From: an uncultured Thermoplasmata archaeon
GTDB taxonomy: Archaea; Thermoplasmatota; Thermoplasmata; Halarchaeoplasmatales; Halarchaeoplasmataceae
Assembly: GCA_964535805.1 (NCBI GenBank)
Contig: CAZHUM010000002.1
Span: forward strand, 740 to 64,739
DNA: 64,000 nt
Direction of reading: 5' to 3'
Position 1 is the first letter of the stretch, and each line of letters starts with the position of its first letter. Of the stretch, positions 4,794 through 46,144 are shown piece by piece. A program made the translations under genes and the position numbers. The notes beneath the pieces are model-generated. The model ran no database searches, was not told where the DNA came from, and was given only the letters and a program-made list of their open reading frames with translations.

Positions 4794-5588
4794 ATGACAG
4801 CAAAAGATTCAGGAGTTCATATAACAGCTGGCGGTTTTGAATACGACAGGGTATTGGTACCGATGCTGAACAAGTACCCCGTTGATAAACTGGTGATGTT
4901 CAGGTCTAAAGCTTCGCCTTACACTGAAGCGAGGGACCTAGCCGGAGAATTTCTGACCAAACTTAAGGATAACCCGATCGACATCGACATAGTAAAACTG
5001 GATATCTACGACTTCAACGACGTTTTCATAAACACCCTCGACCAGATAAAGAAATACGCGGAGAAAGGTAAGAAAGTTTACATCAACATTTCTCCAGTAC
5101 CTAAATTGGCCACTGTTGCCATGATAAGTGCCGCTTTCCTATCGAGGTACAAAGACAGCCTGGAGATATTCTATGCATCGCCCAAAGATTACCTGATACC
5201 TAAGATGATGGAATATCTCTCAGACATCGAAAACAAGGATTCTTTGGACAGATTGAAAGAACTCGGAGATAGGTTCATGAAGAACGGCACGGCTGTGGGT
5301 GTGCAAGAGTACCAGGAGATACCGGTGTTCCCCATCAAAGAGATCAACGATGTTGACATGGAGATACTGAAGACCATCAAAGAAAAGGAAGGCGTCCAAT
5401 CCATCGAAGAACTCGTAGAAACGATCAACGAAAACCGAAAAGAAGAAATCAAGCGGTCGAGCGTCCAGTATCGTTTAGAGAGACTGGAAGAGAAACGGAT
5501 GCTCGATACGGAGAGAGAAGACAGGCGGCTGAAGATACGACTCAACCGGCTGGGAGAAGTGTACCTGGAAGGATGTATGCACAGCTGA
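4794..5588 (+). CDS. Csa3-like transcriptional regulator (N-terminal CARF/Rossmann-like domain plus C-terminal winged HTH; HFX_2341-like family)
   Basis: N-terminal HITAGGFEYDRVLVPML matches the T/S-x-GF-D/E motif of Csa3 CARF domains. The C-terminal half is basic and helical (RLERLEEKRMLD..RLKIRLNRLGE), typical of a wHTH. It is divergent from a palindrome-rich intergenic region. Confidence 0.5.
   Translation: MTAKDSGVHITAGGFEYDRVLVPMLNKYPVDKLVMFRSKASPYTEARDLAGEFLTKLKDNPIDIDIVKLDIYDFNDVFINTLDQIKKYAEKGKKVYINISPVPKLATVAMISAAFLSRYKDSLEIFYASPKDYLIPKMMEYLSDIENKDSLDRLKELGDRFMKNGTAVGVQEYQEIPVFPIKEINDVDMEILKTIKEKEGVQSIEELVETINENRKEEIKRSSVQYRLERLEEKRMLDTEREDRRLKIRLNRLGEVYLEGCMHS
5531..5584. repeat. 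direct repeat copy 1 (54 bp, 52/54 identical to 7122..7175); encodes the C-terminal 17 codons of the regulator
   Basis: The sequence is gaagatacgactcaaccggctgggagaagtgtacctggaaggatgtatgcacag. Weaker similarity continues about 20 bp further. Confidence 0.85.
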
Positions 5589-5620
5589 ATCAACACGTCC
5601 CGAGCAGGCTAGAGGAATAA

Positions 5621-6238
5621 TCACTCGAATATATCAGAGAACTGTGAACTTATGGTCCTTTTCAATCCGTCCCGTTTCCTTTCTACCCTTAACCCGACTA
5701 CACGATCAATCTCACTGGAATCCAATTTAATATCTTTTTCTAAAAGCTTTTCTCGTATACCTACAAGATCGTCAAAGAATTTTTCTTTGTTCGGATCATC
5801 CTCAATCCTATCCATATAAGCTTCCGCTTTGGCGGCTATCAGATGTTCGTTCGTCGGCACGTGGACTCCCCTGATTAACTCAGAGGTTTCAGTCATATTC
5901 TGAAGGACCTCTTCCGTTAAAAAGTGTGAGCCTCCGGCATCTATCAATTCAACGGTTATATTTTTATCTCCAATAGTTGCAAAAAAGGTGATACTCGCTC
6001 CATCGGTTTCGATATTGAACGATCCGTTCAGCTCCTTTGCTACCTCTTCTAAACGATCATAGAACTCTTCATATGGGTCGGTAGGAAAGGGATGTACGTC
6101 TATGTCTTTAGTACTCCTTACATTTCCAAATCTATACAACACCGCTGAGCTGCCGAGCAGTAGGATATCTATTCCGTGTCGATTGAAGGCTTCAACAAGT
6201 TTTTTAACACATTCGTAGTGCTCTTTTTCATCGATCAT
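5621..6238 (-). CDS. minimal nucleotidyltransferase-fold protein (205 aa)
   Basis: LLGSSAVLYRFGNVRSTKDIDV matches the GS-x(9-13)-DxD signature of the pol-beta NTase superfamily. It overlaps the upstream gene by 4 nt (ATGA). Confidence 0.6.
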   Translation of the reverse strand: MIDEKEHYECVKKLVEAFNRHGIDILLLGSSAVLYRFGNVRSTKDIDVHPFPTDPYEEFYDRLEEVAKELNGSFNIETDGASITFFATIGDKNITVELIDAGGSHFLTEEVLQNMTETSELIRGVHVPTNEHLIAAKAEAYMDRIEDDPNKEKFFDDLVGIREKLLEKDIKLDSSEIDRVVGLRVERKRDGLKRTISSQFSDIFE

Positions 6239-6972
6239 CTAACAGAGACCTCCTTTATCTTTCCCTTTCCTAGAGCGTTTTGCTTTTCTTTTATATAATT
6301 CGGAAGTTCAACATCGAATTCATTCGGTTTTTTACCACCGTAGCCAGAATAACCCAGCCATAAAAGTTTGTCTTTCATGTTCTGACTAAGTTTCAACCCT
6401 TCAAAGATTTCCTTACCGGCCTTGACTTCTCGTGGAAGATAAGTGGATAAAAAAAGCAGAGCCGTATCCGTTCCGTCGAGTATAGGTAGTTCATATGTTT
6501 GGCCAAACAATTTCAACTTGACCTTCTTTTCAGCAGAAAAATCATAGACAAAATAATCTAATTCACCAAAACCTGGATCTTCGTTGAAAACGACCATAGT
6601 TCTCTCCGGAACATAATCCGCATATGCATTCCCAGAAAAACAAATAAATGCATGAGATAAACCTTCGTGTTCGAACACGGAATTCAATGAGAGTAATTCA
6701 GCATAATAACCCATGGCCGCCCAGCAATTGATCAGTATCGATGGATCCACTGCGAAATACTCACCACGGTTTAATTTTATTGTCAAGTAATAATCCATAG
6801 ACTTTTTTAAAAATTGATCTGCCAAGTTTTTATTGTCTTCTAACATATCCTTTCTTTTAAATCTCTTAGGCGGATTTAAACTAATATATTTTTTAATCAA
6901 CCATCTGGGAGGTACCCTCATGTCTTTTTCATCGAGGGTCGGTATATTATGGACTTTATGTTCTCCTTCCAT
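6235..6972 (-). CDS. hypothetical protein (245 aa), upstream partner of the nucleotidyltransferase
   Basis: ORF with a 4-nt overlap with the NTase gene. AT-rich. No Rx4-6H HEPN motif and no obvious HTH seen. Confidence 0.5.
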   Translation of the reverse strand: MEGEHKVHNIPTLDEKDMRVPPRWLIKKYISLNPPKRFKRKDMLEDNKNLADQFLKKSMDYYLTIKLNRGEYFAVDPSILINCWAAMGYYAELLSLNSVFEHEGLSHAFICFSGNAYADYVPERTMVVFNEDPGFGELDYFVYDFSAEKKVKLKLFGQTYELPILDGTDTALLFLSTYLPREVKAGKEIFEGLKLSQNMKDKLLWLGYSGYGGKKPNEFDVELPNYIKEKQNALGKGKIKEVSVR

Positions 6973-7121
6973 AAAATCACAATATATTAACTATTAATTA
7001 AGTTTTCTGTTTACTTAGCTATGCATTAAGTCTTTAAACTGTTGAACGATATATTAACTATCTTACCCCCCCTCAATTCTCTAACCTATATCAGATTATC
7101 TGAGTCTATGAGTAGAAAGAG

Positions 7122-7175
7122 GAAGATACGACTCAACTAGCTGGGAGAAGTGTACCTGGAAGGATGTATGCACAG
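7122..7175. repeat. direct repeat copy 2 (non-coding remnant of the regulator 3' end)
   Basis: The sequence is gaagatacgactcaactagctgggagaagtgtacctggaaggatgtatgcacag. It has two mismatches versus copy 1. Confidence 0.85.
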
Positions 7176-7215
7176 GCGAATCATCACTTCCCAAGCAGGA
7201 ACCTTGTTCCAGTCT

Positions 7216-7725
7216 TTACAGCACTTCGACTTCTTTGATCTTTATGTCCTTGGCGGGCACGTCGGCATGTCCTCTCTCCTTCAAGGTGTCCACGTCACCT
7301 ATCTTCTCCACAACGTCCATACCATCCACAACTTTGCCGAATACACAGTAGCCCCAACCGTCTCCGGTTCTGTCCCAGTCCAGTCCATCGTTATCCTTCA
7401 GGTTGATGTAGAACTGTGACGTTGCCGAATGCGGTTTACCCGTTCTAGCCATGGCTACGGTTCCCTCCTTGTTCCTGTGACCGCTTTTTTCCGCCTCGTT
7501 CTTTACCGGTCCGTAGGTGGTGTCTTTCTGGATCATACCCGGTTTGAATCCACCGCCCTGCACCACGAAGTTCGGGATGACTCTGTGGAATATCGATCCT
7601 TTAAAGAACCCGTCTTCTGCATACTTAAGAAAGTTTTTCACGGTCTCTGGTGCGTCGTCATCGAAAAGCTCTATCACCAACTCTCCTTCCGTCGTTTTCA
7701 TCTTTACCTTGGTGTTATCTGACAT
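7216..7725 (-). CDS. ppiB: peptidyl-prolyl cis-trans isomerase, cyclophilin type
   Basis: LVIELFDDDAPETVKNF, FHRVIPNFVVQGGG and GTVAMAR..PHSATSQFYIN are canonical cyclophilin motifs. They closely resemble E. coli PpiB. Confidence 0.9.
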   Translation of the reverse strand: MSDNTKVKMKTTEGELVIELFDDDAPETVKNFLKYAEDGFFKGSIFHRVIPNFVVQGGGFKPGMIQKDTTYGPVKNEAEKSGHRNKEGTVAMARTGKPHSATSQFYINLKDNDGLDWDRTGDGWGYCVFGKVVDGMDVVEKIGDVDTLKERGHADVPAKDIKIKEVEVL

Positions 7726-9506: not shown

Positions 9507-9743
9507 GTGTCTATATTGAGCGAAGTGACCACTGTTCAAGTCAAGAAAAAAACATTAAAAAAACTACAGATGGAAAAGGAATACCCCAGACAAACGTATG
9601 ATGAGATCATATCAAATATGATCAAGGTCTATGATGATGTCAAGAAAAGTAACCAATACGACGAATTTCTACATAAGATCCAGCAGCCCAAGATGAAAGA
9701 ACTTTGGGACAATCCGGACGACGAGGCTTGGGAAGATGCTTGA
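9507..9743 (+). CDS. putative antitoxin (small DNA-binding protein) of the MazF-like module
   Basis: 78-aa ORF that overlaps the toxin gene by 8 nt. N-terminal TTVQVKKKTLKKL looks like a beta-strand plus helix, as in RHH/AbrB-type antitoxins. Confidence 0.45.
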   Translation: MSILSEVTTVQVKKKTLKKLQMEKEYPRQTYDEIISNMIKVYDDVKKSNQYDEFLHKIQQPKMKELWDNPDDEAWEDA

Positions 9744-10050
9744 ATCAGGGGATGTCGTATTGACAAAGGTACAATTCACAGATACCTTCGAAATAAAGAG
9801 AAGACCTGCTGTCGTTCTTTTCGAAGAGATGAACAATGTGGTGATCGCCGGTATAACAAGTAATTTGAATATGGTTGGGATCCCATTATCCAAAGAAGAT
9901 GGGGCGATTAAGGAGAGTGTTATTAAGTTGAACTACATCTTTACGGTATCCAATCAGATGGTAGAGAGAGTCTTATTTAAATTGAATCAGGACAAAAAGG
10001 AAAAAATCTTTGAAGAGATGAATAAAAAACTACGTTCTCTAAAAGATTAA
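9736..10050 (+). CDS. MazF/PemK-family endoribonuclease toxin
   Basis: GDVVLTKVQFTDTFEIKRRPAVVL...VVIAGITSN follows the PemK/MazF pattern GDIV-x-V-x-FPF-x(5-8)-KxRPALVL...V-x-ITS. Confidence 0.65.
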   Translation: MLESGDVVLTKVQFTDTFEIKRRPAVVLFEEMNNVVIAGITSNLNMVGIPLSKEDGAIKESVIKLNYIFTVSNQMVERVLFKLNQDKKEKIFEEMNKKLRSLKD

Positions 10051-11093: not shown

Positions 11094-11243
11094 CATTCAA
11101 CCTTCGATCAGCTCTTTCTGCTGTCTGCTCCACTCTTCATTGGAGGTCTTTTTCAGCCACTCTACATACAGATCGATGAATTTCAACCTCTCTTCGAAAT
11201 TCCTTTTTCTTTCTTCCTTTAACTCATCCAAGTCGATATTCAT
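11094..11243 (-). CDS. 49-aa charged helical peptide, translationally coupled to the NTase gene
   Basis: ATGA start/stop overlap with the upstream NTase gene. Translation is MNIDLDELKEERKRNFEERLKFIDLYVEWLKKTSNEEWSRQQKELIEGG. Below the ORF-track length cut-off. Confidence 0.3.
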
Positions 11244-11806
11244 TTTGACCACCCGAGATAGTACTTCGCATCCTCGATAGAAATTTCTAAGGCATCCAAA
11301 TATTCTAGTAGCTTGCCAGTATTTAGATTTTTCTCGAAAAGTTTGAACAAAAATCTTGCATCTTCTATGTCCTTTTCAGAACCCATGAATAGTTTAAAAG
11401 CTATTTGTTGTTCAAGAGGAGATATGGGCAGGCGTTTTTCATTTAACAGAACGGTTATCGAGTTCTCAAGTGCTTTTCTATCCATACCAGTATGTTGAAA
11501 TTTGAGTTCTATGTTAGGAATGATCTCACCCTTATAGGCAAAACGAACTGCTATCTTATCCATCAAATACCCTTCATATGCATCTTTCACATCTGAAGTG
11601 ATTATACACTCGAATTCACCACTCAAATTATGCCACAAATCTTCAAATTTTTTATAAGATATATTTTCACACACAACGTCGATATCTTCACTCGTTCGAT
11701 TTCTCCCAAATAAGATCGCTACATAGCCAGATAAGAAGATATGAGAAATATTCAACTGGGATAGATTTTCTGAGAAGTAGATTGCCATCTCATCCAACTT
11801 GTTCAA
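11240..11806 (-). CDS. nucleotidyltransferase-fold protein, paralog of the 5621..6238 gene
   Basis: LSGYVAILFGRNRTSEDIDVV aligns with LLGSSAVLYRFGNVRSTKDIDV of the other NTase. It shares a downstream P-x-E-x-IA-K segment with it. Confidence 0.55.
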   Translation of the reverse strand: MNKLDEMAIYFSENLSQLNISHIFLSGYVAILFGRNRTSEDIDVVCENISYKKFEDLWHNLSGEFECIITSDVKDAYEGYLMDKIAVRFAYKGEIIPNIELKFQHTGMDRKALENSITVLLNEKRLPISPLEQQIAFKLFMGSEKDIEDARFLFKLFEKNLNTGKLLEYLDALEISIEDAKYYLGWSK

Positions 11807-11911
11807 TTCCTTTTCCAGAGATATTCTATCGCCGTTGTAATTCAGTTCTATCTCATCGCCTCCACGTAAATGGCTTTTTTCACCATGTTAACATTGATGT
11901 GTAAAATTTCG

Positions 11912-12172
11912 TCATTCCGTATTCAACTTCCTCAGTTCCTCGGGGGTTATCAATCCCTGCGCCAGGAGATCGAAGGTGTCGTCTATGGTGACGATCCTCT
12001 CCACGGTATCGAAATCTATGTCTCCACCGCAGCACTGCTTGTAGACTTCCTTCACCTTCTCGTAATAGTGGATATCTTCATCGGGGTACTCCGGTATATC
12101 CAATTCTCCCATCTCGCACATAGCGACTAACCTTTTGATCTTCCTTTCCTCTTCTTCTTCCACTCTGACCAC
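11912..12172 (-). CDS. hypothetical small protein
   Basis: 86-aa ORF lying 105 nt upstream of the NTase paralog. No motif recognised. Confidence 0.3.
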   Translation of the reverse strand: MVRVEEEEERKIKRLVAMCEMGELDIPEYPDEDIHYYEKVKEVYKQCCGGDIDFDTVERIVTIDDTFDLLAQGLITPEELRKLNTE

Positions 12173-12309
12173 CTTAATACCGAGTGAATATTTTGATGGT
12201 TTTTAAGCTTTTTTACTGAAAATTATGTGAAGGAATGTAGATTGACCAAGGTGCGTCCAGAATATTCCCAAAGAAAAAAACTTTATACGTTACATTCATT
12301 TAATAATTC

Positions 12310-15309
12310 ATGGAGGAAGAAACTCCAGTCTTCTCCCTAAAACCAGAGTTGACCGGAAGAGACGAGGAGATCGAAAGGCTTGACAATCTATTCGATAATA
12401 CCGTCAAGGGGAAAGGCTCCACTGTTTTCATCTCAGGAGAAGCTGGTATCGGTAAGACCAGGCTCGTAGAGGAACTCATAAACACTGCAGAAGCAGAGAA
12501 CGCCAAGATAATCCAGGGATGGTGCCTCGCAGACAGCTTGGAGCCGTTGATGCCCTTCAAAGAAGGGCTGAGAGACGCGGGGCTCTCCCACTTCGTATCT
12601 AAGAATCCGCCACCGAAGGTGATCTCCGCTTACCTGATAGACATCTCCGGTATATTGATAGCAAAAGCGGAGAGAGAGAAAACGGAGCTGGACCCGGACA
12701 TCTTCGCATCCATGCTCACCGCCGTTGAGAACTTCGTAAGCGACTCGCTTTCCATGATGGGTGAGGAACACGGCAGCAAGTTGAACAGCATACGATACGG
12801 GGAGTTCGAGATACTAGTACAGTCTACATCCGAGGTGTCCATCGCTGCGGTCATCGAGGGGACCCACAGTGAATTTTTGATCAACGATATGAGGGACACC
12901 CTGAAGAACGTAAGCTCCGAGTTCAGCTCATGGGAGGGCGACATGAGATGTGTCGATAAGGTCAAACCCAAGGTCGATTGGTTCATCGAATCCAGAAAGT
13001 ACGAAGGGAGGCACTTGGTGGACGACCCGAAGATCAGGCAGGAGAACCTTTTCGACAACGTTCTCCTGGGGCTGAGAAGGATATCTGCCGAGCGTCCGGT
13101 AGTCGTTTTCATAGACGACCTCCAGTGGGCCGACCCGTCCTCGCTAAACATGCTCCACTATCTCTCGAGGAACACAAGAGATAACGGTGTTCTTATACTT
13201 GGAACGTACCGTCCAGAGGATATTCTGGAATTGTCATCAACAATTCCAAATGTCGATGGAATTTGCCAGAAAATTCCAACAGATGTTTCTGAAACGTATG
13301 ATGGAAAAACCCATCCGCTGAAGACGACCATGCAGAATATGAGCAGAGAAGACCTCTTCGAGACAGTGGAGCTGAGCAGGCTCGAGGAATCGACTGTCGA
13401 GGAATTCATGGAGAAAACACTGGGTAAAATAGAATTGAAGAGCGGGTTCGTTAAGGAAGTATACAGAGAGAGCGAGGGCAACCCGTTTTTCCTTCTCGAA
13501 GTAACCAAGATGCTGATAGAAGAAAAACATCTGATAAACGAAGATGGCACGTGGAAGATCAAGGATCCCGAGGAGGGTATCCACATACCGTCCAAAGTGT
13601 ACGACGTAGTGGTAAGACGACTCGAGAGGTTGATCCAAGAGCAGAGAGACCTCTTAGAATGCGCTAGCGTGGTGGGTGAAGAGTTCGAGAGTTCCGTGGT
13701 TGGAGAGGTCACGGGGATGAACAGAGTGAACCTACTGAAGAATCTGAACAAGATCGAGAGGACTCACAACTTGATACATTCCATAGAAAAAAAATACCGG
13801 TTCGACCACTCTAAGATAAGAGAAGTTCTCTACAACGGTATAAACGAGGAGCTGAGGCAGGAATATCATCGTATAATCGCCGATACCTACGTAGAGCTGT
13901 ACCAGGATGATATCGAAACCGTGATCGAGGATGTCGCAAATCACTACGACCTAGCGGAGGACGAAAGGGCGGGAGATTACTTGATACGAGCAGGAAACAA
14001 AACCAAGGACAGCTTCGGCAACGAGGAGGCAGTACTTTGGTACAAGAAATCTTTGAAATATCAACTTGAAAATACAGATCTAGCACAGGTATACAAGAAG
14101 ATGGGTGAGATACATTCTTTGACGGGGGACTACAAGGAATCTATAGAATATCTGGAAAGGGCTATCCCCAATATCGACGAAAGGGAAACCCAGGTTGATC
14201 TTTACTGGGATATAGCAAACGCCTACGAGAGGATGGGGGAGTACGATAGGGCATTGGAAGAATGCGAAAAAGGCTTGGATATTAATAAGGATATAAATAC
14301 CTCCGGTAAATCAAGAATCTTAGGGATGATGGGGTGGATATACATGAGAAGAAACGACTATGACAACGCTGAAGAAGTCCTTTTCCGAGCCCTTGAGGTA
14401 GCAGAGAGTATTGGGGGTGGGGATGAGATCGGGTACGTTTACAGCTTCTTAGGCAATTTCTACGATAACAAAGGTATCTACGACAAAGCACTGGATTATT
14501 ACAAAAAATCTCTTGAGATATTCCAGGAGATAGGGGATGTTATTTACCGATCGAAGGCACTGAACAACATCGGTTTGGTCAACTGGAAGATCGGGAACTT
14601 CGATAAGGCTGAAAAGTGCTACAGCGAGAGTTTGGAGATCAAAGAGAACGTGGGAGACAAGCACGGTATACTGGTCACCTTGGCAAACCTGGGCAGTCTA
14701 CACGAAGATATGGGAGATTACGAGAACGCCCTGGAAGAACACAAGAAATGTCTGGAGATAAGTGAGACCATCGGAGACAGTTTCAGTTCCTGCGTGGCCA
14801 GGTTCAATATCGGTTCCCTCTACAAAGTAAAAGATGAGATGGGGAGAGCTATGGAGTACTTCGAAGAAAGCCTAGCTCTGTGTAAAAAGATTAACAACGA
14901 TTGGATACAGGTCCATAATGAGTGTGAGATCGCCCATATAAAAGCGAATGAGGGTGATTTTGAGAGGGCTTTGGAATTGATCGAAGATGCTCTGAATAGA
15001 ACTAGAGAAATGGGTGCACAAGCCGAGGAGGGGCTTTGTCTTAAGGTCAAAGGTATCATCCATAGAGAGATGGAGGAATATGAGGAGGCAGAAGATGAGT
15101 TAAGAAAAGCTGAAAATATACTAGATGAAGTGGGCGATAAGAAAGAGATGGCTAAGACATATCTGGAATATGGGAGATTGTTCAAAGATAGGGGGGAATT
15201 TGGCAAAGCCCGCGAGAGATTGGAGAAGGCAAAAGAGATGTTCGGAGATATGGGGATGGGGATCTGGGTCGATAAAGCAGATGAGGATATGTCAACTCTA
15301 GATAGTTAA
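12310..15309 (+). CDS. STAND-type NTPase (AAA_16-like) with a roadblock/LC7-like insertion and C-terminal TPR repeats (999 aa)
   Basis: Walker A is GEAGIGKTRL and Walker B is PVVVFIDDLQWAD. About 120 aa between them (ISAYLIDISGILIAKAERE...EILVQSTSEVSIAAVIEG) follows the roadblock/MglB pattern. Residues 560-990 contain many TPR-like repeats (e.g. EEAVLWYKKSLKY, YDRALEECEKGLDI). Confidence 0.7.
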   Translation: MEEETPVFSLKPELTGRDEEIERLDNLFDNTVKGKGSTVFISGEAGIGKTRLVEELINTAEAENAKIIQGWCLADSLEPLMPFKEGLRDAGLSHFVSKNPPPKVISAYLIDISGILIAKAEREKTELDPDIFASMLTAVENFVSDSLSMMGEEHGSKLNSIRYGEFEILVQSTSEVSIAAVIEGTHSEFLINDMRDTLKNVSSEFSSWEGDMRCVDKVKPKVDWFIESRKYEGRHLVDDPKIRQENLFDNVLLGLRRISAERPVVVFIDDLQWADPSSLNMLHYLSRNTRDNGVLILGTYRPEDILELSSTIPNVDGICQKIPTDVSETYDGKTHPLKTTMQNMSREDLFETVELSRLEESTVEEFMEKTLGKIELKSGFVKEVYRESEGNPFFLLEVTKMLIEEKHLINEDGTWKIKDPEEGIHIPSKVYDVVVRRLERLIQEQRDLLECASVVGEEFESSVVGEVTGMNRVNLLKNLNKIERTHNLIHSIEKKYRFDHSKIREVLYNGINEELRQEYHRIIADTYVELYQDDIETVIEDVANHYDLAEDERAGDYLIRAGNKTKDSFGNEEAVLWYKKSLKYQLENTDLAQVYKKMGEIHSLTGDYKESIEYLERAIPNIDERETQVDLYWDIANAYERMGEYDRALEECEKGLDINKDINTSGKSRILGMMGWIYMRRNDYDNAEEVLFRALEVAESIGGGDEIGYVYSFLGNFYDNKGIYDKALDYYKKSLEIFQEIGDVIYRSKALNNIGLVNWKIGNFDKAEKCYSESLEIKENVGDKHGILVTLANLGSLHEDMGDYENALEEHKKCLEISETIGDSFSSCVARFNIGSLYKVKDEMGRAMEYFEESLALCKKINNDWIQVHNECEIAHIKANEGDFERALELIEDALNRTREMGAQAEEGLCLKVKGIIHREMEEYEEAEDELRKAENILDEVGDKKEMAKTYLEYGRLFKDRGEFGKARERLEKAKEMFGDMGMGIWVDKADEDMSTLDS

Positions 15310-16882: not shown

Positions 16883-18373
16883 TTACACCCTGGACCACAG
16901 TCCCGACAGCCTCTTGGTCCCCCACAAGCTGTTGATCTCGTAAACCGCCACCACTTTTTCATAGATATCTATCAGATTAAATGAATTACCCAACAGGCTC
17001 CTCTGGTAGATGCTGCTCAACGAGTTGGCGTTCACTATGATAGTCCCCTCCACACTCAGGAAGTGGGGGTGTGAAGATGTCCCGGTCAACACGAGATCGA
17101 TCCCGGAATCTACTACCTCTCTCAACAGGTCTCCGCTGTCCTCAAGCAGACCTTTCTCACGGCTGTGTGGTATGGGCAGAAGATTGTGATGTAGGAATAT
17201 CCCTTTGAAATCCTCTTCCCGGTCCTCGAGGTCTCTAAGTAGTGCGGTCCTCTCCGTCTTACCGACTATACCGATGGGTGAGTCGTACTGAGATGAAGCT
17301 ACGCCCTGGAGAATGATATCGTCGTTGGACCACGTTTGATCCAGTTCACCGAAGAACTTTGAGAATAGATGATAACCGAGGTAATTCAAGTCACGACCCG
17401 CAGGTGTATACACCACGGGAGCGTAGATCCTTGACAGGCGCTCGTGTGCCACCTGATAGTCCCGGGAGATGCCCTCTCTGACTATACCACCGCAGTGGAC
17501 CACTACGTCCGGGTCCAGGTTGTTGATGGTGTTGATAGCGTTCTTGAAATGTCTTTTAAGGAACACCCTGGAATCGGATATGAATGTATTAGAAATGTGA
17601 GCTATCCTGCATTCCCTCTTTCCGAAATCAGAAAAAATACGCTGTGTCTTCCTTGGAAAATCGAAGCGCTCCTCCCTGCCGTCCACTCTCTTAGTTATCA
17701 CGCTCTTACCTTTCTCGTCGATATCTATGATGTTGTAGGAGTTGACGTCTCCGTACCTCGTTTTGGTCGAAGAAACGGTTCCAGCATTTATCAGAACGGA
17801 GTCTTCTACCCGGTACACATTTGGATAATGCCGATGACCGGATATTATCAGATCGACATCCGAGTTGATGAACAGTTCCAGCAGATCACCGGCGTTGGAC
17901 AGTATGTTCCTCTCTCTTCCCGCCATGGGTATGGGTATGGTGTGATGGTGCAGCACGATTATCTTGATGGATTTGTCGTTGAATTCGTTCAACGCTTCCT
18001 CGAGAAAATCGAATTTTACCATGCCCACTCTGCCGTTGTTGCTGTCGGCTATGGCGCTGTTGACGAATATAACGACCGCATCATCGAAATCGTTGAAACC
18101 CGTGGATGGGCCGATGTAGTCTTCGAAAAGTTGAACTCCGCCGTTCCTTGCATCGTGGTTTCCCGGTACCACCACGTAGGGGACCTCCAACCTCTGGAAA
18201 AATCGCTGGGCTTCTTCGTACTCGGACAACCTACCACTCTGGGTGACGTCTCCGCTGTGTATCAATAGGTCGTACTTACCGCTGTTTATCTCTTTAAGAA
18301 CTTTCTCTAAAACCTCGCCGTTGAATTCGCTTCCACCATCGATGTGGGTGTCCGATATGTGGATTATCTTCAT
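16883..18373 (-). CDS. tandem calcineurin-like metallophosphoesterase (two MPP domains)
   Basis: Domain 1 has ISDTH..GD(x)n..GNHD..HH..GH. A second copy of the same motif series lies in residues ~260-496 (ISNTF..GG..HHN..GTSSH). Confidence 0.8.
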   Translation of the reverse strand: MKIIHISDTHIDGGSEFNGEVLEKVLKEINSGKYDLLIHSGDVTQSGRLSEYEEAQRFFQRLEVPYVVVPGNHDARNGGVQLFEDYIGPSTGFNDFDDAVVIFVNSAIADSNNGRVGMVKFDFLEEALNEFNDKSIKIIVLHHHTIPIPMAGRERNILSNAGDLLELFINSDVDLIISGHRHYPNVYRVEDSVLINAGTVSSTKTRYGDVNSYNIIDIDEKGKSVITKRVDGREERFDFPRKTQRIFSDFGKRECRIAHISNTFISDSRVFLKRHFKNAINTINNLDPDVVVHCGGIVREGISRDYQVAHERLSRIYAPVVYTPAGRDLNYLGYHLFSKFFGELDQTWSNDDIILQGVASSQYDSPIGIVGKTERTALLRDLEDREEDFKGIFLHHNLLPIPHSREKGLLEDSGDLLREVVDSGIDLVLTGTSSHPHFLSVEGTIIVNANSLSSIYQRSLLGNSFNLIDIYEKVVAVYEINSLWGTKRLSGLWSRV

Positions 18374-18374
18374 C

Positions 18375-18806
18375 TCACTCCCTCGAGATGTGGGTTTCCA
18401 TAGAGTGCCTTTGGATGTCCAAAAGGTCTCCCAAGGTCATTATACCGATTATTTCGCCCCTCTCTTTCACCAATATGTGTTTGATGTTCTGTTTGGACAT
18501 CAATTCGAGGACCTCCCTTATCTTCGCGTTGATATCGGAGGTTATCAGATCCTCGTTCATGATCTCTGTTACCTTCATATCCGGTTTCCGCCCCTTAGCC
18601 ACTACCTTCCTCTTTATGTCTCCATCTGTGAAGTACCCGATCACCTCATCCCCTTCCACTACTGCCAGAGAGCTGATGTTGAATTCCACCATCTTCTGTG
18701 CGGCTTCCCTTACTGTGCTGCTCGAGTCTATACCGATCAACCTTTTTGTAACGAACTGCCTGATCGGAAGGTCCAGTTCGTAAATATTTGGTAGATTATG
18801 GTTCAT
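18375..18806 (-). CDS. CBS-domain pair protein
   Basis: Two CBS motifs are present (SSLAVVEGDEVIGYFTDGDI and KHILVKERGEIIGIMTLGDL). Only 1 nt separates it from the phosphoesterase gene. Confidence 0.8.
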   Translation of the reverse strand: MNHNLPNIYELDLPIRQFVTKRLIGIDSSSTVREAAQKMVEFNISSLAVVEGDEVIGYFTDGDIKRKVVAKGRKPDMKVTEIMNEDLITSDINAKIREVLELMSKQNIKHILVKERGEIIGIMTLGDLLDIQRHSMETHISRE

Positions 18807-19683
18807 CTTCCATCACCTCCTCCAGTCCGGAGAAAACGTCTTCCAATATGACCTTCAAGGTTTTTTCGAAATCCACATTTTCTACCACGGTTATACCTCC
18901 CTTCAAAGCCATGCTGACGACGTAATCGTGTATCTCCCTGATGCGATCTAAGCGGTCTATGTATCGACTCGGGTCCCTCAGACTACCCTCTTCTCGAGAG
19001 TGGAAGTGCTGTATGTGTTGTTCGATATCCGGCACATCGAGAACGTATTGATAAGTGTGGGCGGATGATTTTCTGTCTGTCTGGATGAACCCCGGTACGA
19101 TATGCACCCCGTTCAGAACCATGTTCAGTCCCTCCTTACGTCCTCGGTTCATCACGGCGACCAGCCCCTCGCTCACCAAGCTCACCTGCTGCTCGAAGGC
19201 GTAGATCAGTTTATTGCTGACGAAGGGTGTCCTCAATTTATCGCATGCGGTAAAAGTTGATTGGTGGAGTGTGGGTATCAGTTCCGGTGATATTATGGAA
19301 CGCATTATCTCTCTGATCGTGTCGGTTCCGATAACCCTGTTGATACCGAGACGATGTCCGATCTCGGCGGATAAGCTCGACTTACCAACACCCGGACCTC
19401 CGCCGATCATGATGAAAAGCGGCTGATCAAGGTACTTTATCTTCCTCCTCACCCGGTAGTATCGCTCTTCAAGGTTTCTGTTTCGATGCTTCAGTTCTTT
19501 AGATACCATGTCCTTGATCTCTGAAGAGCTTATCTCTTCGAAGCCCTCCTTTTCTATCCTATCTTTTATATTCTCGACTATCTCGTACGCCTCTTCCACG
19601 GTCATGCCCAAACTGGATATCGACCTTGCAAGGATCCCCTTCGAGAACGGATACGTTTTATCACCTTTCTTTACTTCAACCAT
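18796..19683 (-). CDS. 2-phosphoglycerate kinase
   Basis: P-loop is IGGGPGVGKS. Overall length and N-terminal region match the archaeal 2PGK family. The gene overlaps the cDPG synthetase gene by 8 nt. Confidence 0.7.
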   Translation of the reverse strand: MVEVKKGDKTYPFSKGILARSISSLGMTVEEAYEIVENIKDRIEKEGFEEISSSEIKDMVSKELKHRNRNLEERYYRVRRKIKYLDQPLFIMIGGGPGVGKSSLSAEIGHRLGINRVIGTDTIREIMRSIISPELIPTLHQSTFTACDKLRTPFVSNKLIYAFEQQVSLVSEGLVAVMNRGRKEGLNMVLNGVHIVPGFIQTDRKSSAHTYQYVLDVPDIEQHIQHFHSREEGSLRDPSRYIDRLDRIREIHDYVVSMALKGGITVVENVDFEKTLKVILEDVFSGLEEVMEDEP

Positions 19684-46070: not shown

Positions 46071-46144
46071 TGCAGGCGACGGGATTCGAACCCGTGCAAT
46101 TAGCTTGGAAGGCTAAGATCCTAACCAGACTAGATCACGCCTGC
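46071..46144 (-). tRNA. tRNA-Trp (anticodon CCA), no intron, CCA tail not encoded
   Basis: Reverse complement is GCAGGCGTGATCTAGTCTGGTTAGGATCTTAGCCTTCCAAGCTAATTGCACGGGTTCGAATCCCGTCGCCTGCA. It folds as a cloverleaf with a 7-bp acceptor stem, a GTTCGAATC T-loop and anticodon loop TTCCAAG. Confidence 0.8.

Follow-up and report, generated by a model that had tools for sequence, protein, structure and literature searches.

A predicted Thermoplasmata STAND NTPase with a roadblock/longin-class domain inserted in its nucleotide-binding domain, and its possible connection with Ras-family GTPases

Our analysis of a 64,000-nucleotide stretch of DNA from an uncultured Thermoplasmata archaeon (contig CAZHUM010000002.1 of assembly GCA_964535805.1; we call the whole stretch "the window") centres on the gene at positions 12310–15309 of the forward strand, a complete open reading frame (ORF) of 999 amino acids (AAs) whose coordinates agree exactly with those in an earlier note made from the sequence of this DNA. 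Its product is predicted to be a STAND NTPase in which a domain of roadblock/longin-like fold interrupts the nucleotide-binding domain (NBD) and which ends in a long array of tetratricopeptide repeats (TPRs); the positions of these parts are collected in table 1. The gene apparently stands alone as a monocistronic unit. Some 25 nt ahead of the ATG there is a candidate archaeal TATA box, which suggests a promoter of its own and a leaderless or short-leader mRNA, and the 111-bp gap between the 3' end of the gene and the next gene holds a T-run and an A/T-rich box. The protein is apparently a soluble copy of its family.

The Pfam model AAA_16 matches the window protein above its cut-off in two stretches (E 5e-25). 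An alignment of 88 sequences shows near-invariant Walker A and Walker B motifs, invariant D275, R301 (the sensor-1 arginine) and E303, and at least 90% conservation of G390, P392, F498, D499 and H500. The F-D-H at residues 498–500 lies in the winged helix and corresponds to the "MHD-like" histidine of STAND proteins, and an AlphaFold2 (AF2) model of residues 1–590 (mean predicted local distance difference test score, pLDDT, 87) has the helical and winged-helix secondary structure at the GxP and F-D-H positions, respectively. Foldseek places this 590-AA model with CED-4 (4m9s, E 2e-7), MalT (8bob, E 3.9e-7) and an archaeal STAND-TPR protein (6mfv, E 1.3e-6), and also with Cdc6 and many RuvBL1/2 chains (E about 1e-6 for the latter). 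A phmmer search for sequence relatives in the PDB gave none at E<=1e-3. At the level of prediction, the window protein is a MalT/AAA_16-type STAND NTPase; the earlier note had already called it a STAND NTPase. A loop of about 23 AAs after the sensor-1 strand (LELSSTIPNVDGICQKIPTDVSE; residues 306–328, positions 13225–13293) appears to be peculiar to this copy: its place is a gap in all homologues shown of a 12-homologue alignment and is filled in just one of the 83 sequences of a larger one, and pLDDT falls below 50 at residues 308–330 of the 590-AA model.

The C-terminal 430 AAs had been called TPR-like, and Pfam bears this out with matches over approximately residues 575–985 (TPR_12, E 9.9e-53; TPR_1, E 8.8e-41; TPR_MalT, E 1.2e-16). 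We presume that this array is a sensor or interaction domain. The observation that the protein carries no effector domain also holds: over its 999 AAs Pfam finds AAA_16 and TPRs and no nuclease, protease, Sir2 or TIR domain, and there is no room for a fused effector since the NBD begins at residue 13 and the TPRs reach the end of the protein.

The unusual part of the protein is an insert of about 135 AAs in the link between β2 and α2 of the NBD. In the window protein 221 residues separate Walker A from Walker B, as against 123–133 in P0076, P0083 and P0086, the closest insert-less relatives, in which the alignment shows the insert to be missing at the same site. The enlarged spacing first noticed here is therefore real, although smaller than the approximately 250 AAs that had been estimated and measured from a larger baseline than the approximately 80 AAs assumed, and the net gain is only about 95 AAs because the domain stands in place of a variable segment of about 45 AAs. 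A homologue search with residues 1–534 found 884 relatives; the first 80 or so clusters cover 95–99% of the query and are labelled mostly as metagenome-assembled genomes of Thermoplasmata/Thermoplasmatota. About 75 of the top 83 clusters have the insert, with 150–170 AAs between the same flanking columns, and its conservation equals that of the ATPase core (majority-residue fraction 0.61, against 0.64–0.68 in the NBD). The invariant positions include G114, F132 and E188, and two motifs, W-G-D (residues 208–211) and S-x-K-Y-[DE]-G (residues 228–233; S-G-K-Y-D-G), are conserved at the C-terminal edge.

An AF2 model of residues 92–250 made with 78 sequences (pLDDT 79.7, predicted TM-score 0.74) folds the insert in the order β-β-α-β-β-β-α-α, with strands at residues 103–111, 116–121, 158–163, 166–172 and 176–183 and helices at 129–149, 188–202 and 212–227 (DSSP). 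The 590-AA model repeats the same elements with pLDDT 80–92 over the insert, and there the insert is flanked by β2 and a helix (residues 81–89) on one side and on the other by a helix (240–261) from which the chain passes to the strand of Walker B; we assign helix 81–89 to the AAA_16 core because the insert-less relatives have it too. The models and the conservation in about 75 clusters indicate, at the level of prediction, a real and self-contained α/β domain within the NBD, and not a disordered segment or the plain helical arm of AAA_16, the two outcomes that would have spoken against the earlier description. The insert-less relatives P0076, P0083, P0086, P0100 and P0116 carry at this site (residues ~100–240 of the window protein) a hydrophobic, Gly/Pro-rich segment of about 45 AAs (for example APNILALIPVVGPVMAVG), which could be a membrane-associating loop; its presence marks the β2–α2 link as a variable hot spot of this AAA_16 subfamily.

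Comparison of the insert model with the PDB by Foldseek gave 80 matches at E<=1e-3, and the best 50 of these 80 are all roadblock or longin domains (E 4e-5 to 4e-4, probability 1.00). The roadblock matches include MglB of M. xanthus and T. thermophilus, the Streptomyces Roadblock/LC7 domain 3kye (target-normalised TM-score 0.67), LAMTOR/Ragulator subunits and axonemal/dynein LC7 (entries 6hjm, 1j3w, 3kye, 3t12, 1veu and 5y39, with target-normalised TM-scores of 0.5–0.69). The longin matches include the VAMP7 longin domain (4afi, E 1.1e-4 over 144 columns, query-normalised TM-score 0.51), AP sigma and COPI zeta (entries including 9qpq, 5mc7 and 4p6z), and 6u62 also falls in the longin/LAMTOR group. 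The model superposes on the α/β sandwich of MglB, LC7 and LAMTOR with its five-stranded antiparallel sheet, but its elements follow the longin order (ββ-α-βββ-α-α) and not the canonical roadblock order (α-ββ-α-βββ), as the insert has no N-terminal helix. Sequence comparisons are far weaker. The isolated window insert has no Pfam match to Robl_LC7 at E<=10; Robl_LC7 is the commonest Pfam match among the inserts of the family, but is found in 7 of 39 members and always below threshold (best E 0.011), and no longin Pfam family exceeds its threshold in the 39. Against PDB sequences the insert profile finds AP-4 sigma as its best natural protein (E 0.07) and otherwise designed proteins. Because these matches are weak, we describe the predicted domain as roadblock/longin-class by fold, with sequence homology to Robl_LC7 or MglB not demonstrable. 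The roadblock domain proposed in the earlier note has thus survived as a fold class, but neither as a Robl_LC7 sequence match nor in its canonical order of elements.

Could the insert be no true domain at all, but a loose, lineage-specific elaboration of the AAA_16 helical region whose fold is an artefact of modelling? Pfam does align the segment up to residue 143 with AAA_16 positions up to 124, the query-normalised TM-scores are moderate (0.45–0.55) and profile comparison with MglB is insignificant. On the other hand, the insert columns are strongly conserved, two independent predictions give the same secondary structure, the top Foldseek matches fall in one fold class, and the segment occurs in proteins that are not ATPases (below). 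We find this explanation scarcely credible, and regard it as largely refuted already.

A profile of the insert matches 4623 representative clusters at E<=1e-3 (2201 at E<=1e-10), and besides the approximately 1000-AA STAND-TPR proteins these matches place the domain in three other settings. First, proteins of about 560 AAs that lack a Walker A motif have three or four transmembrane helices and, after these, the domain in two tandem copies (P0222, P0236, P0240 and P0242). Second, proteins of 1200–2400 AAs with CARDB and DUF5915 domains and no P-loop have two or three copies about 500 AAs apart (P0121, P0156, P0173, P0189, P0210 and P0229). Third, longer STAND members (P0129, P0141, P0145, P0155, P0159 and P0225) have extracellular-type domains (Big_9, Cadherin_5, He_PIG, fn3, NosD/β-helix, FG-GAP and Ig) and one predicted transmembrane helix before the insert-bearing nucleotide-binding oligomerisation domain (NOD) and the TPRs; from their sequences they look like single-pass receptors. 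The domain's presence in proteins without Walker A, and there in multiple copies, argues that it is a mobile module. None of the approximately 75 insert-bearing clusters and 13 other profile hits that were scanned has a Pfam match over the domain. Public names given to members of the family include "TPR repeat-containing adenylate/guanylate cyclase", "adenylate cyclase", "DUF2791 family P-loop", "BREX system ATP-binding domain" and "TPR protein"; as no cyclase domain is present, these names look like a carry-over from AAA_16 similarity. The public annotations also overlook the inserted domain.

PAS and GAF domains belong, like roadblock and longin domains, to a profilin-like fold class, and the domain follows membrane anchors in other proteins, so one may ask whether the insert is a PAS/GAF-like sensor of small molecules that tunes the ATPase allosterically. 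We give this only a slim chance: there is no PAS or GAF domain among the best 50 of the 80 Foldseek matches, and no PAS or GAF Pfam match even at E<=10.

Several other features of the family deserve mention. Insert-bearing STAND genes occur as tandem paralogues at three of the related loci examined below (at least three in a row at L001, 113–10748; two each at L004, 7638–12949, and L023, 6001–11717), and P0029, P0035 and P0045 are paralogues on one 4.2-Mb contig. Genes for NosD/β-helix proteins, the same domain type that is fused in the receptor-like members, lie just upstream of insert-bearing STAND genes at L021 (1–3598), L023 (4591–5820) and L024 (4503–5486). A sister group (P0084–P0120) of about 800 AAs has the same AAA_16 NOD (47–49% identity over half of the query) and no insert; in it a C-terminal α/β-hydrolase replaces the long TPR array, although a few members keep a TPR match (examples are L026, 6001–8406, and L027, 6001–8328).

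The surroundings of the family's genes were compared at 25 related loci (a search with a generic Walker B peptide pattern gave at least 12 genome and at least 4 metagenome loci); 21 loci were insert-bearing and usable, and four loci of insert-less relatives served as controls. A gene for a Ras-family GTPase directly adjoins the STAND gene at seven of the 21 (L001/L002, L003, L004, L009, L010, L022 and L024), always on the same strand (7/7) and either overlapping it or no more than 110 bp from it. Two more loci have such a gene on the same strand within 6 kb, L016 with opposite-strand genes between and L017 two genes away, for a total of 9/21. None of the four insert-less control loci has one (0/4). 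Ras-like small GTPases are few per archaeal genome, so co-directional adjacency in a third of the loci is far above chance, although the control set is small. The adjoining GTPases are approximately 277–299 AAs long, match Pfam Ras with E 1e-23 to 1e-30, and have the G1, G3, G4 and G5 motifs in Ras/Rab-type form (DxxG, NKxD and SAK), followed by a helical C-terminal tail of about 110 AAs with no Pfam match. The residue after the G3 DxxG is A, R or Q, and because of this variation the catalytic glutamine may be absent in some of them. L001 has in addition a second GTPase gene on the opposite strand (12022–12573, 183 AAs), followed by a separate 90-AA gene (11732–12004, also minus strand); the product of the latter resembles the tail of the 293-AA GTPase (positions 208–284 of the hidden Markov model, E 8e-6), and the two therefore look like a split version of it. 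The suggestion that the effector-less STAND protein acts through a separately encoded partner fits these family data in its general idea, but the partner to which they point is a Ras-family small GTPase. The nearby nucleotidyltransferase (NTase) paralogue that had been offered as an example fares badly: the ORF in question is a sub-threshold, AbiEii-like match on the opposite strand, and it has no counterpart at the 25 related loci.

Roadblock and longin domains are classical GTPase platforms, GTPase-activating proteins (GAPs) and subunits of guanine nucleotide exchange factors (GEFs), as in MglB-MglA, Ragulator-Rag, longin-DENN/TRAPP and the Streptomyces conservon (PMC4316618, PMC10933270). 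Putting this together with the gene adjacency, we propose from computation that the window protein and its relatives may be STAND switches with a built-in GTPase-docking platform, a tentative reading to which we give a little less than an even chance. In this scheme the TPR array would sense a ligand or protein, with extracellular domains also supplying input in some relatives, and sensing would set off self-association and the ADP/ATP switch usual in STAND proteins. The insert would serve as an output or input port, docking a Ras-family GTPase encoded in trans much as MglB, LAMTOR and longin domains dock MglA, Rag and Rab/Arf GTPases, so that an ATPase switch is coupled to a GTPase switch. 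The GTPase might have in the STAND protein its scaffold, GAP or GEF, or might itself gate the STAND protein.

Several observations weigh against such docking. No GTPase gene lies near the STAND gene at 12 of the 21 loci, the window among them, and the whole 64 kb of the window has neither a GTPase gene nor another copy of the domain, so that the partner of the window copy, if any, is unlinked; for that copy, this lack of a GTPase neighbour is the chief caveat. Nor is there a GTPase gene near L029, the locus of P0222, a transmembrane protein with two tandem domain copies. The insert-less control set is small, at four loci. The fold class is shared with domains of other functions. The MglB precedent is an analogy only, because the adjoining GTPases are Ras/Rab-like and not MglA-like. 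Comparisons by hhalign with hand-entered sequences of M. xanthus MglB and LAMTOR2 and with a 120-sequence MglB profile were insignificant (E 0.02–0.05, probability at most 2%; the 120-sequence alignment, with >=76% identity, was too narrow to stand in fairly for HHpred). The β1-turn-β2 hairpin is nevertheless in register with that of MglB in the hhalign alignment.

In another explanation no GTPase takes part and the insert is only a module for self-association or autoinhibition, pairing protomers or paralogues, or capping the NBD until the TPRs are engaged. Roadblock domains typically dimerise through the edges of their β-sheets. The predicted roadblock/longin fold agrees with this. The tandem paralogues of L001, L004 and L023 could supply heterodimer partners, the tandem pairs in proteins without a P-loop resemble a pseudo-dimer, and the insertion site answers to the ISM/pore-loop side of AAA+ rings, the side that lines the hub of the oligomer. 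The absence of a GTPase gene at over half of the loci and in the window is also as this explanation would have it. It leaves unexplained, however, the co-directional, adjoining Ras-family GTPase genes at seven of 21 loci, and it does not exclude docking, as MglB and LAMTOR bind GTPases as dimers. We consider self-association or autoinhibition as the sole role of the insert unlikely, though it deserves serious weight.

The earlier note had compared the protein with the antiviral STAND (Avs) proteins, and some findings favour this. Here the TPRs would bind a viral protein, and the effector, either the GTPase or a neighbouring toxin, would act in trans. The NOD-TPR architecture is that of such conflict sensors, paralogues of the family are numerous within single genomes and also form tandem arrays, and genes of the toxin-antitoxin or defence kind are found close by at some loci: AbiEii and UPF0175/DUF3368 genes at L003 (4126–4809, 7024–7826), an MNT-HEPN pair (4944–6004), a Cas4-like gene and DUF1016 at L020, and a PemK-like toxin gene (E 1.6e-7) and the sub-threshold AbiEii-like NTase ORF in the window. 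At L020 the HEPN gene overlaps the start codon of the STAND gene. By tblastn there is no homology among the three toxin-antitoxin sets that immediately precede the STAND gene in the window, L003 and L020. Opposing the antiviral explanation, PADLOC matches the window protein neither to Avs nor to any other STAND defence model and yields just generic TPR models, a weak mad8 match (E 2e-4) and PDC-M01A (E 7e-3); the protein has no nuclease, protease, Sir2 or TIR domain fused to it as an effector; the receptor-like relatives, with their extracellular domains, speak more for environmental signalling than for the sensing of viruses inside the cell; the neighbours of the window gene are not conserved; and most of the loci lie amid housekeeping genes. 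The Avs-like framing is accordingly not upheld by the defence models, and we judge an antiviral role quite unlikely.

Upstream of the STAND gene of the window lie, on the opposite strand, the NTase-like ORF (188 AAs) and an 86-AA ORF, with a PhoU gene and the PemK-like toxin gene further upstream, and the PemK/NTase stretch has a lower GC content (0.38 at 10–12 kb). Downstream are a gene for a CMD/AhpD-like protein and one for a 285-AA membrane protein with no Pfam match. Like the NTase ORF, the 86-AA, CMD, 285-AA membrane protein, PhoU and PemK ORFs have no counterpart at any of the 25 related loci. Farther downstream, on the minus strand, are genes for a 496-AA protein with two metallophosphoesterase halves (16883–18373), a CBS-pair protein (18375–18806) and an ATP-cone plus P-loop kinase-like protein (18796–19683), apparently an ordinary housekeeping trio. 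A tRNA gene at 46071–46144 (minus strand) is the sole Rfam match at gathering score within the 64-kb window.

Table 1. Features of the STAND gene, its neighbours in the window, and the GTPase genes adjoining related STAND genes (positions in the window or in the related locus named).
Feature	Sequence	Positions	Strand	Remarks
Whole gene	Window	12310..15309	+	999 AAs: STAND NTPase, inserted roadblock/longin-like domain, TPR array
TTTATA, candidate archaeal TATA box	Window	12282..12287	+	~25 nt 5' of ATG; read from sequence
NBD, N-terminal part, residues 13–100	Window	12346..12609	+	β1, P-loop, α1, β2, short helix; AAA_16 match, DSSP of 590-AA model
Walker A GEAGIGKT, residues 43–50	Window	12436–12459	+	Motif read from sequence
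Inserted domain, roadblock/longin-class by predicted fold, residues 101–235	Window	12610..13014	+	Alignment with insert-less relatives, AF2, Foldseek
NBD, C-terminal part, residues 236–304	Window	13015..13221	+	α2, β3 (Walker B), α3, β4 (sensor-1 Arg)
Walker B VVVFIDDLQWAD, residues 264–275	Window	13099–13134	+	β3; VVVFIDD is residues 264–270
Sensor-1 Arg, R301 in GTYRPED	Window		+	β4 of NBD; invariant
~23-AA loop LELSSTIPNVDGICQKIPTDVSE	Window	13222..13299	+	After sensor-1 strand; disordered by prediction
Helical domain, residues 331–405, and winged helix, residues 406–510	Window	13300..13839	+	GxP in EGNPFF, residues 389–394
Helical arm, residues 511–574, then ~10 TPRs, residues 575–985	Window	13840..15264	+	Pfam
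PemK-like toxin	Window	9736–10050	+	E 1.6e-7; upstream of STAND gene
NTase-like ORF, 188 AAs	Window	11240–11806	-	AbiEii E 0.055, sub-threshold; upstream, opposite strand
86-AA ORF	Window	11912–12172	-	Upstream of STAND gene, opposite strand
Adjoining GTPase	L001	10858–11739	+	
Adjoining GTPase	L003	10713–11588	+	
Adjoining GTPase	L004	6751–7647	+	
Adjoining GTPase	L009	5689–6585	+	
Adjoining GTPase	L010	about 6766–7629	+	
Adjoining GTPase	L022	5037–5906	+	
Adjoining GTPase	L024	8836–9669	+	

A full-text literature search (roadblock, STAND, AAA_16, Thermoplasmata small GTPases) found no description of a STAND-roadblock fusion, and Wuichet & Sogaard-Andersen 2014 (PMC4316618), Kaur et al. 2020 (PMC7159879) and Tran et al. 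2024 (PMC10933270) mention no such fusion. What is new is the combination of a STAND NTPase with a roadblock/longin platform; both parts are of known kinds, and no new category is needed. STAND/NLR-type ATPases and roadblock/longin-GTPase modules are two of the most widespread designs of molecular switch. If the insert does dock a GTPase, an effector-less STAND protein would gain a defined signalling route, the archaeal proteins would offer a tractable model for the coupling of ATPase and GTPase switches, and the platform-GTPase partnership that figures in the debate on eukaryogenesis would be in wider archaeal use. It is possible, though we think it rather doubtful, that the Thermoplasmatota have a whole, hitherto undescribed signalling system of this type, in which soluble or receptor-fused STAND proteins with an NBD platform directly control, or are controlled by, a dedicated Ras-family GTPase with a helical tail of about 110 AAs. 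This would be a prokaryotic relay from receptor to ATPase to GTPase, with a eukaryote-like longin/roadblock-GTPase logic beyond the Asgard archaea. A new domain model for the insert would be warranted as well, given 4623 clusters and the domain's lack of Pfam matches in those scanned.

Among known systems, MalT (8bob) and the archaeal STAND-TPR protein 6mfv have the same order of NBD, helical domain, winged helix, arm and TPRs, with the same motifs (Foldseek E 4e-7 to 1e-6), and the ligand-gated ADP/ATP switch of the MalT-type STANDs is expected to be shared by the window protein. Unlike them, it has a domain of about 135 AAs between β2 and α2 and no DNA-binding or effector domain. A whole extra domain between Walker A and Walker B does have a precedent among AAA+ proteins in RuvBL1/RuvBL2 (Rvb1/2, pontin/reptin), so the insertion site itself is not without parallel; there the insert is the OB-fold domain II, of a different fold, and the RuvBL proteins, which do not belong to the STANDs, assemble as hexameric rings within chromatin remodellers. 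The RuvBL alignments found by Foldseek are consistent with a topologically similar insertion site, and homology of the inserts is not implied. With the Avs proteins the family shares a NOD joined to a TPR-like sensor and an expansion of paralogues, but it has no N-terminal effector and no PADLOC match, and to our knowledge a roadblock-like insert is not a feature of Avs1–5.

Close parallels to the insert are the MglB/Robl_LC7 domains (PF03259), including those of the MglA-MglB and Streptomyces CvnB-CvnD (conservon) systems; its best structural matches belong here (6hjm, 1j3w, 3t12 and 3kye). A genomic link to a small GTPase of the Ras superfamily is a further resemblance, though one seen across the family and not in the window copy. 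MglB is a stand-alone protein of approximately 120–160 AAs, whereas the insert lies within an ATPase, lacks the N-terminal helix, has two C-terminal helices and fails the Pfam model, and the linked GTPases have Ras/Rab-type G motifs unlike those of MglA. The longins (VAMP7, the AP and COPI sigma and zeta subunits) and LAMTOR resemble the insert in Foldseek matches, in the order of elements (the longins) and, in general, in their role as GTPase platforms. They are parts of eukaryotic trafficking and mTOR machinery, whereas here the domain resides in a Thermoplasmatota STAND ATPase with no membrane-trafficking context evident.

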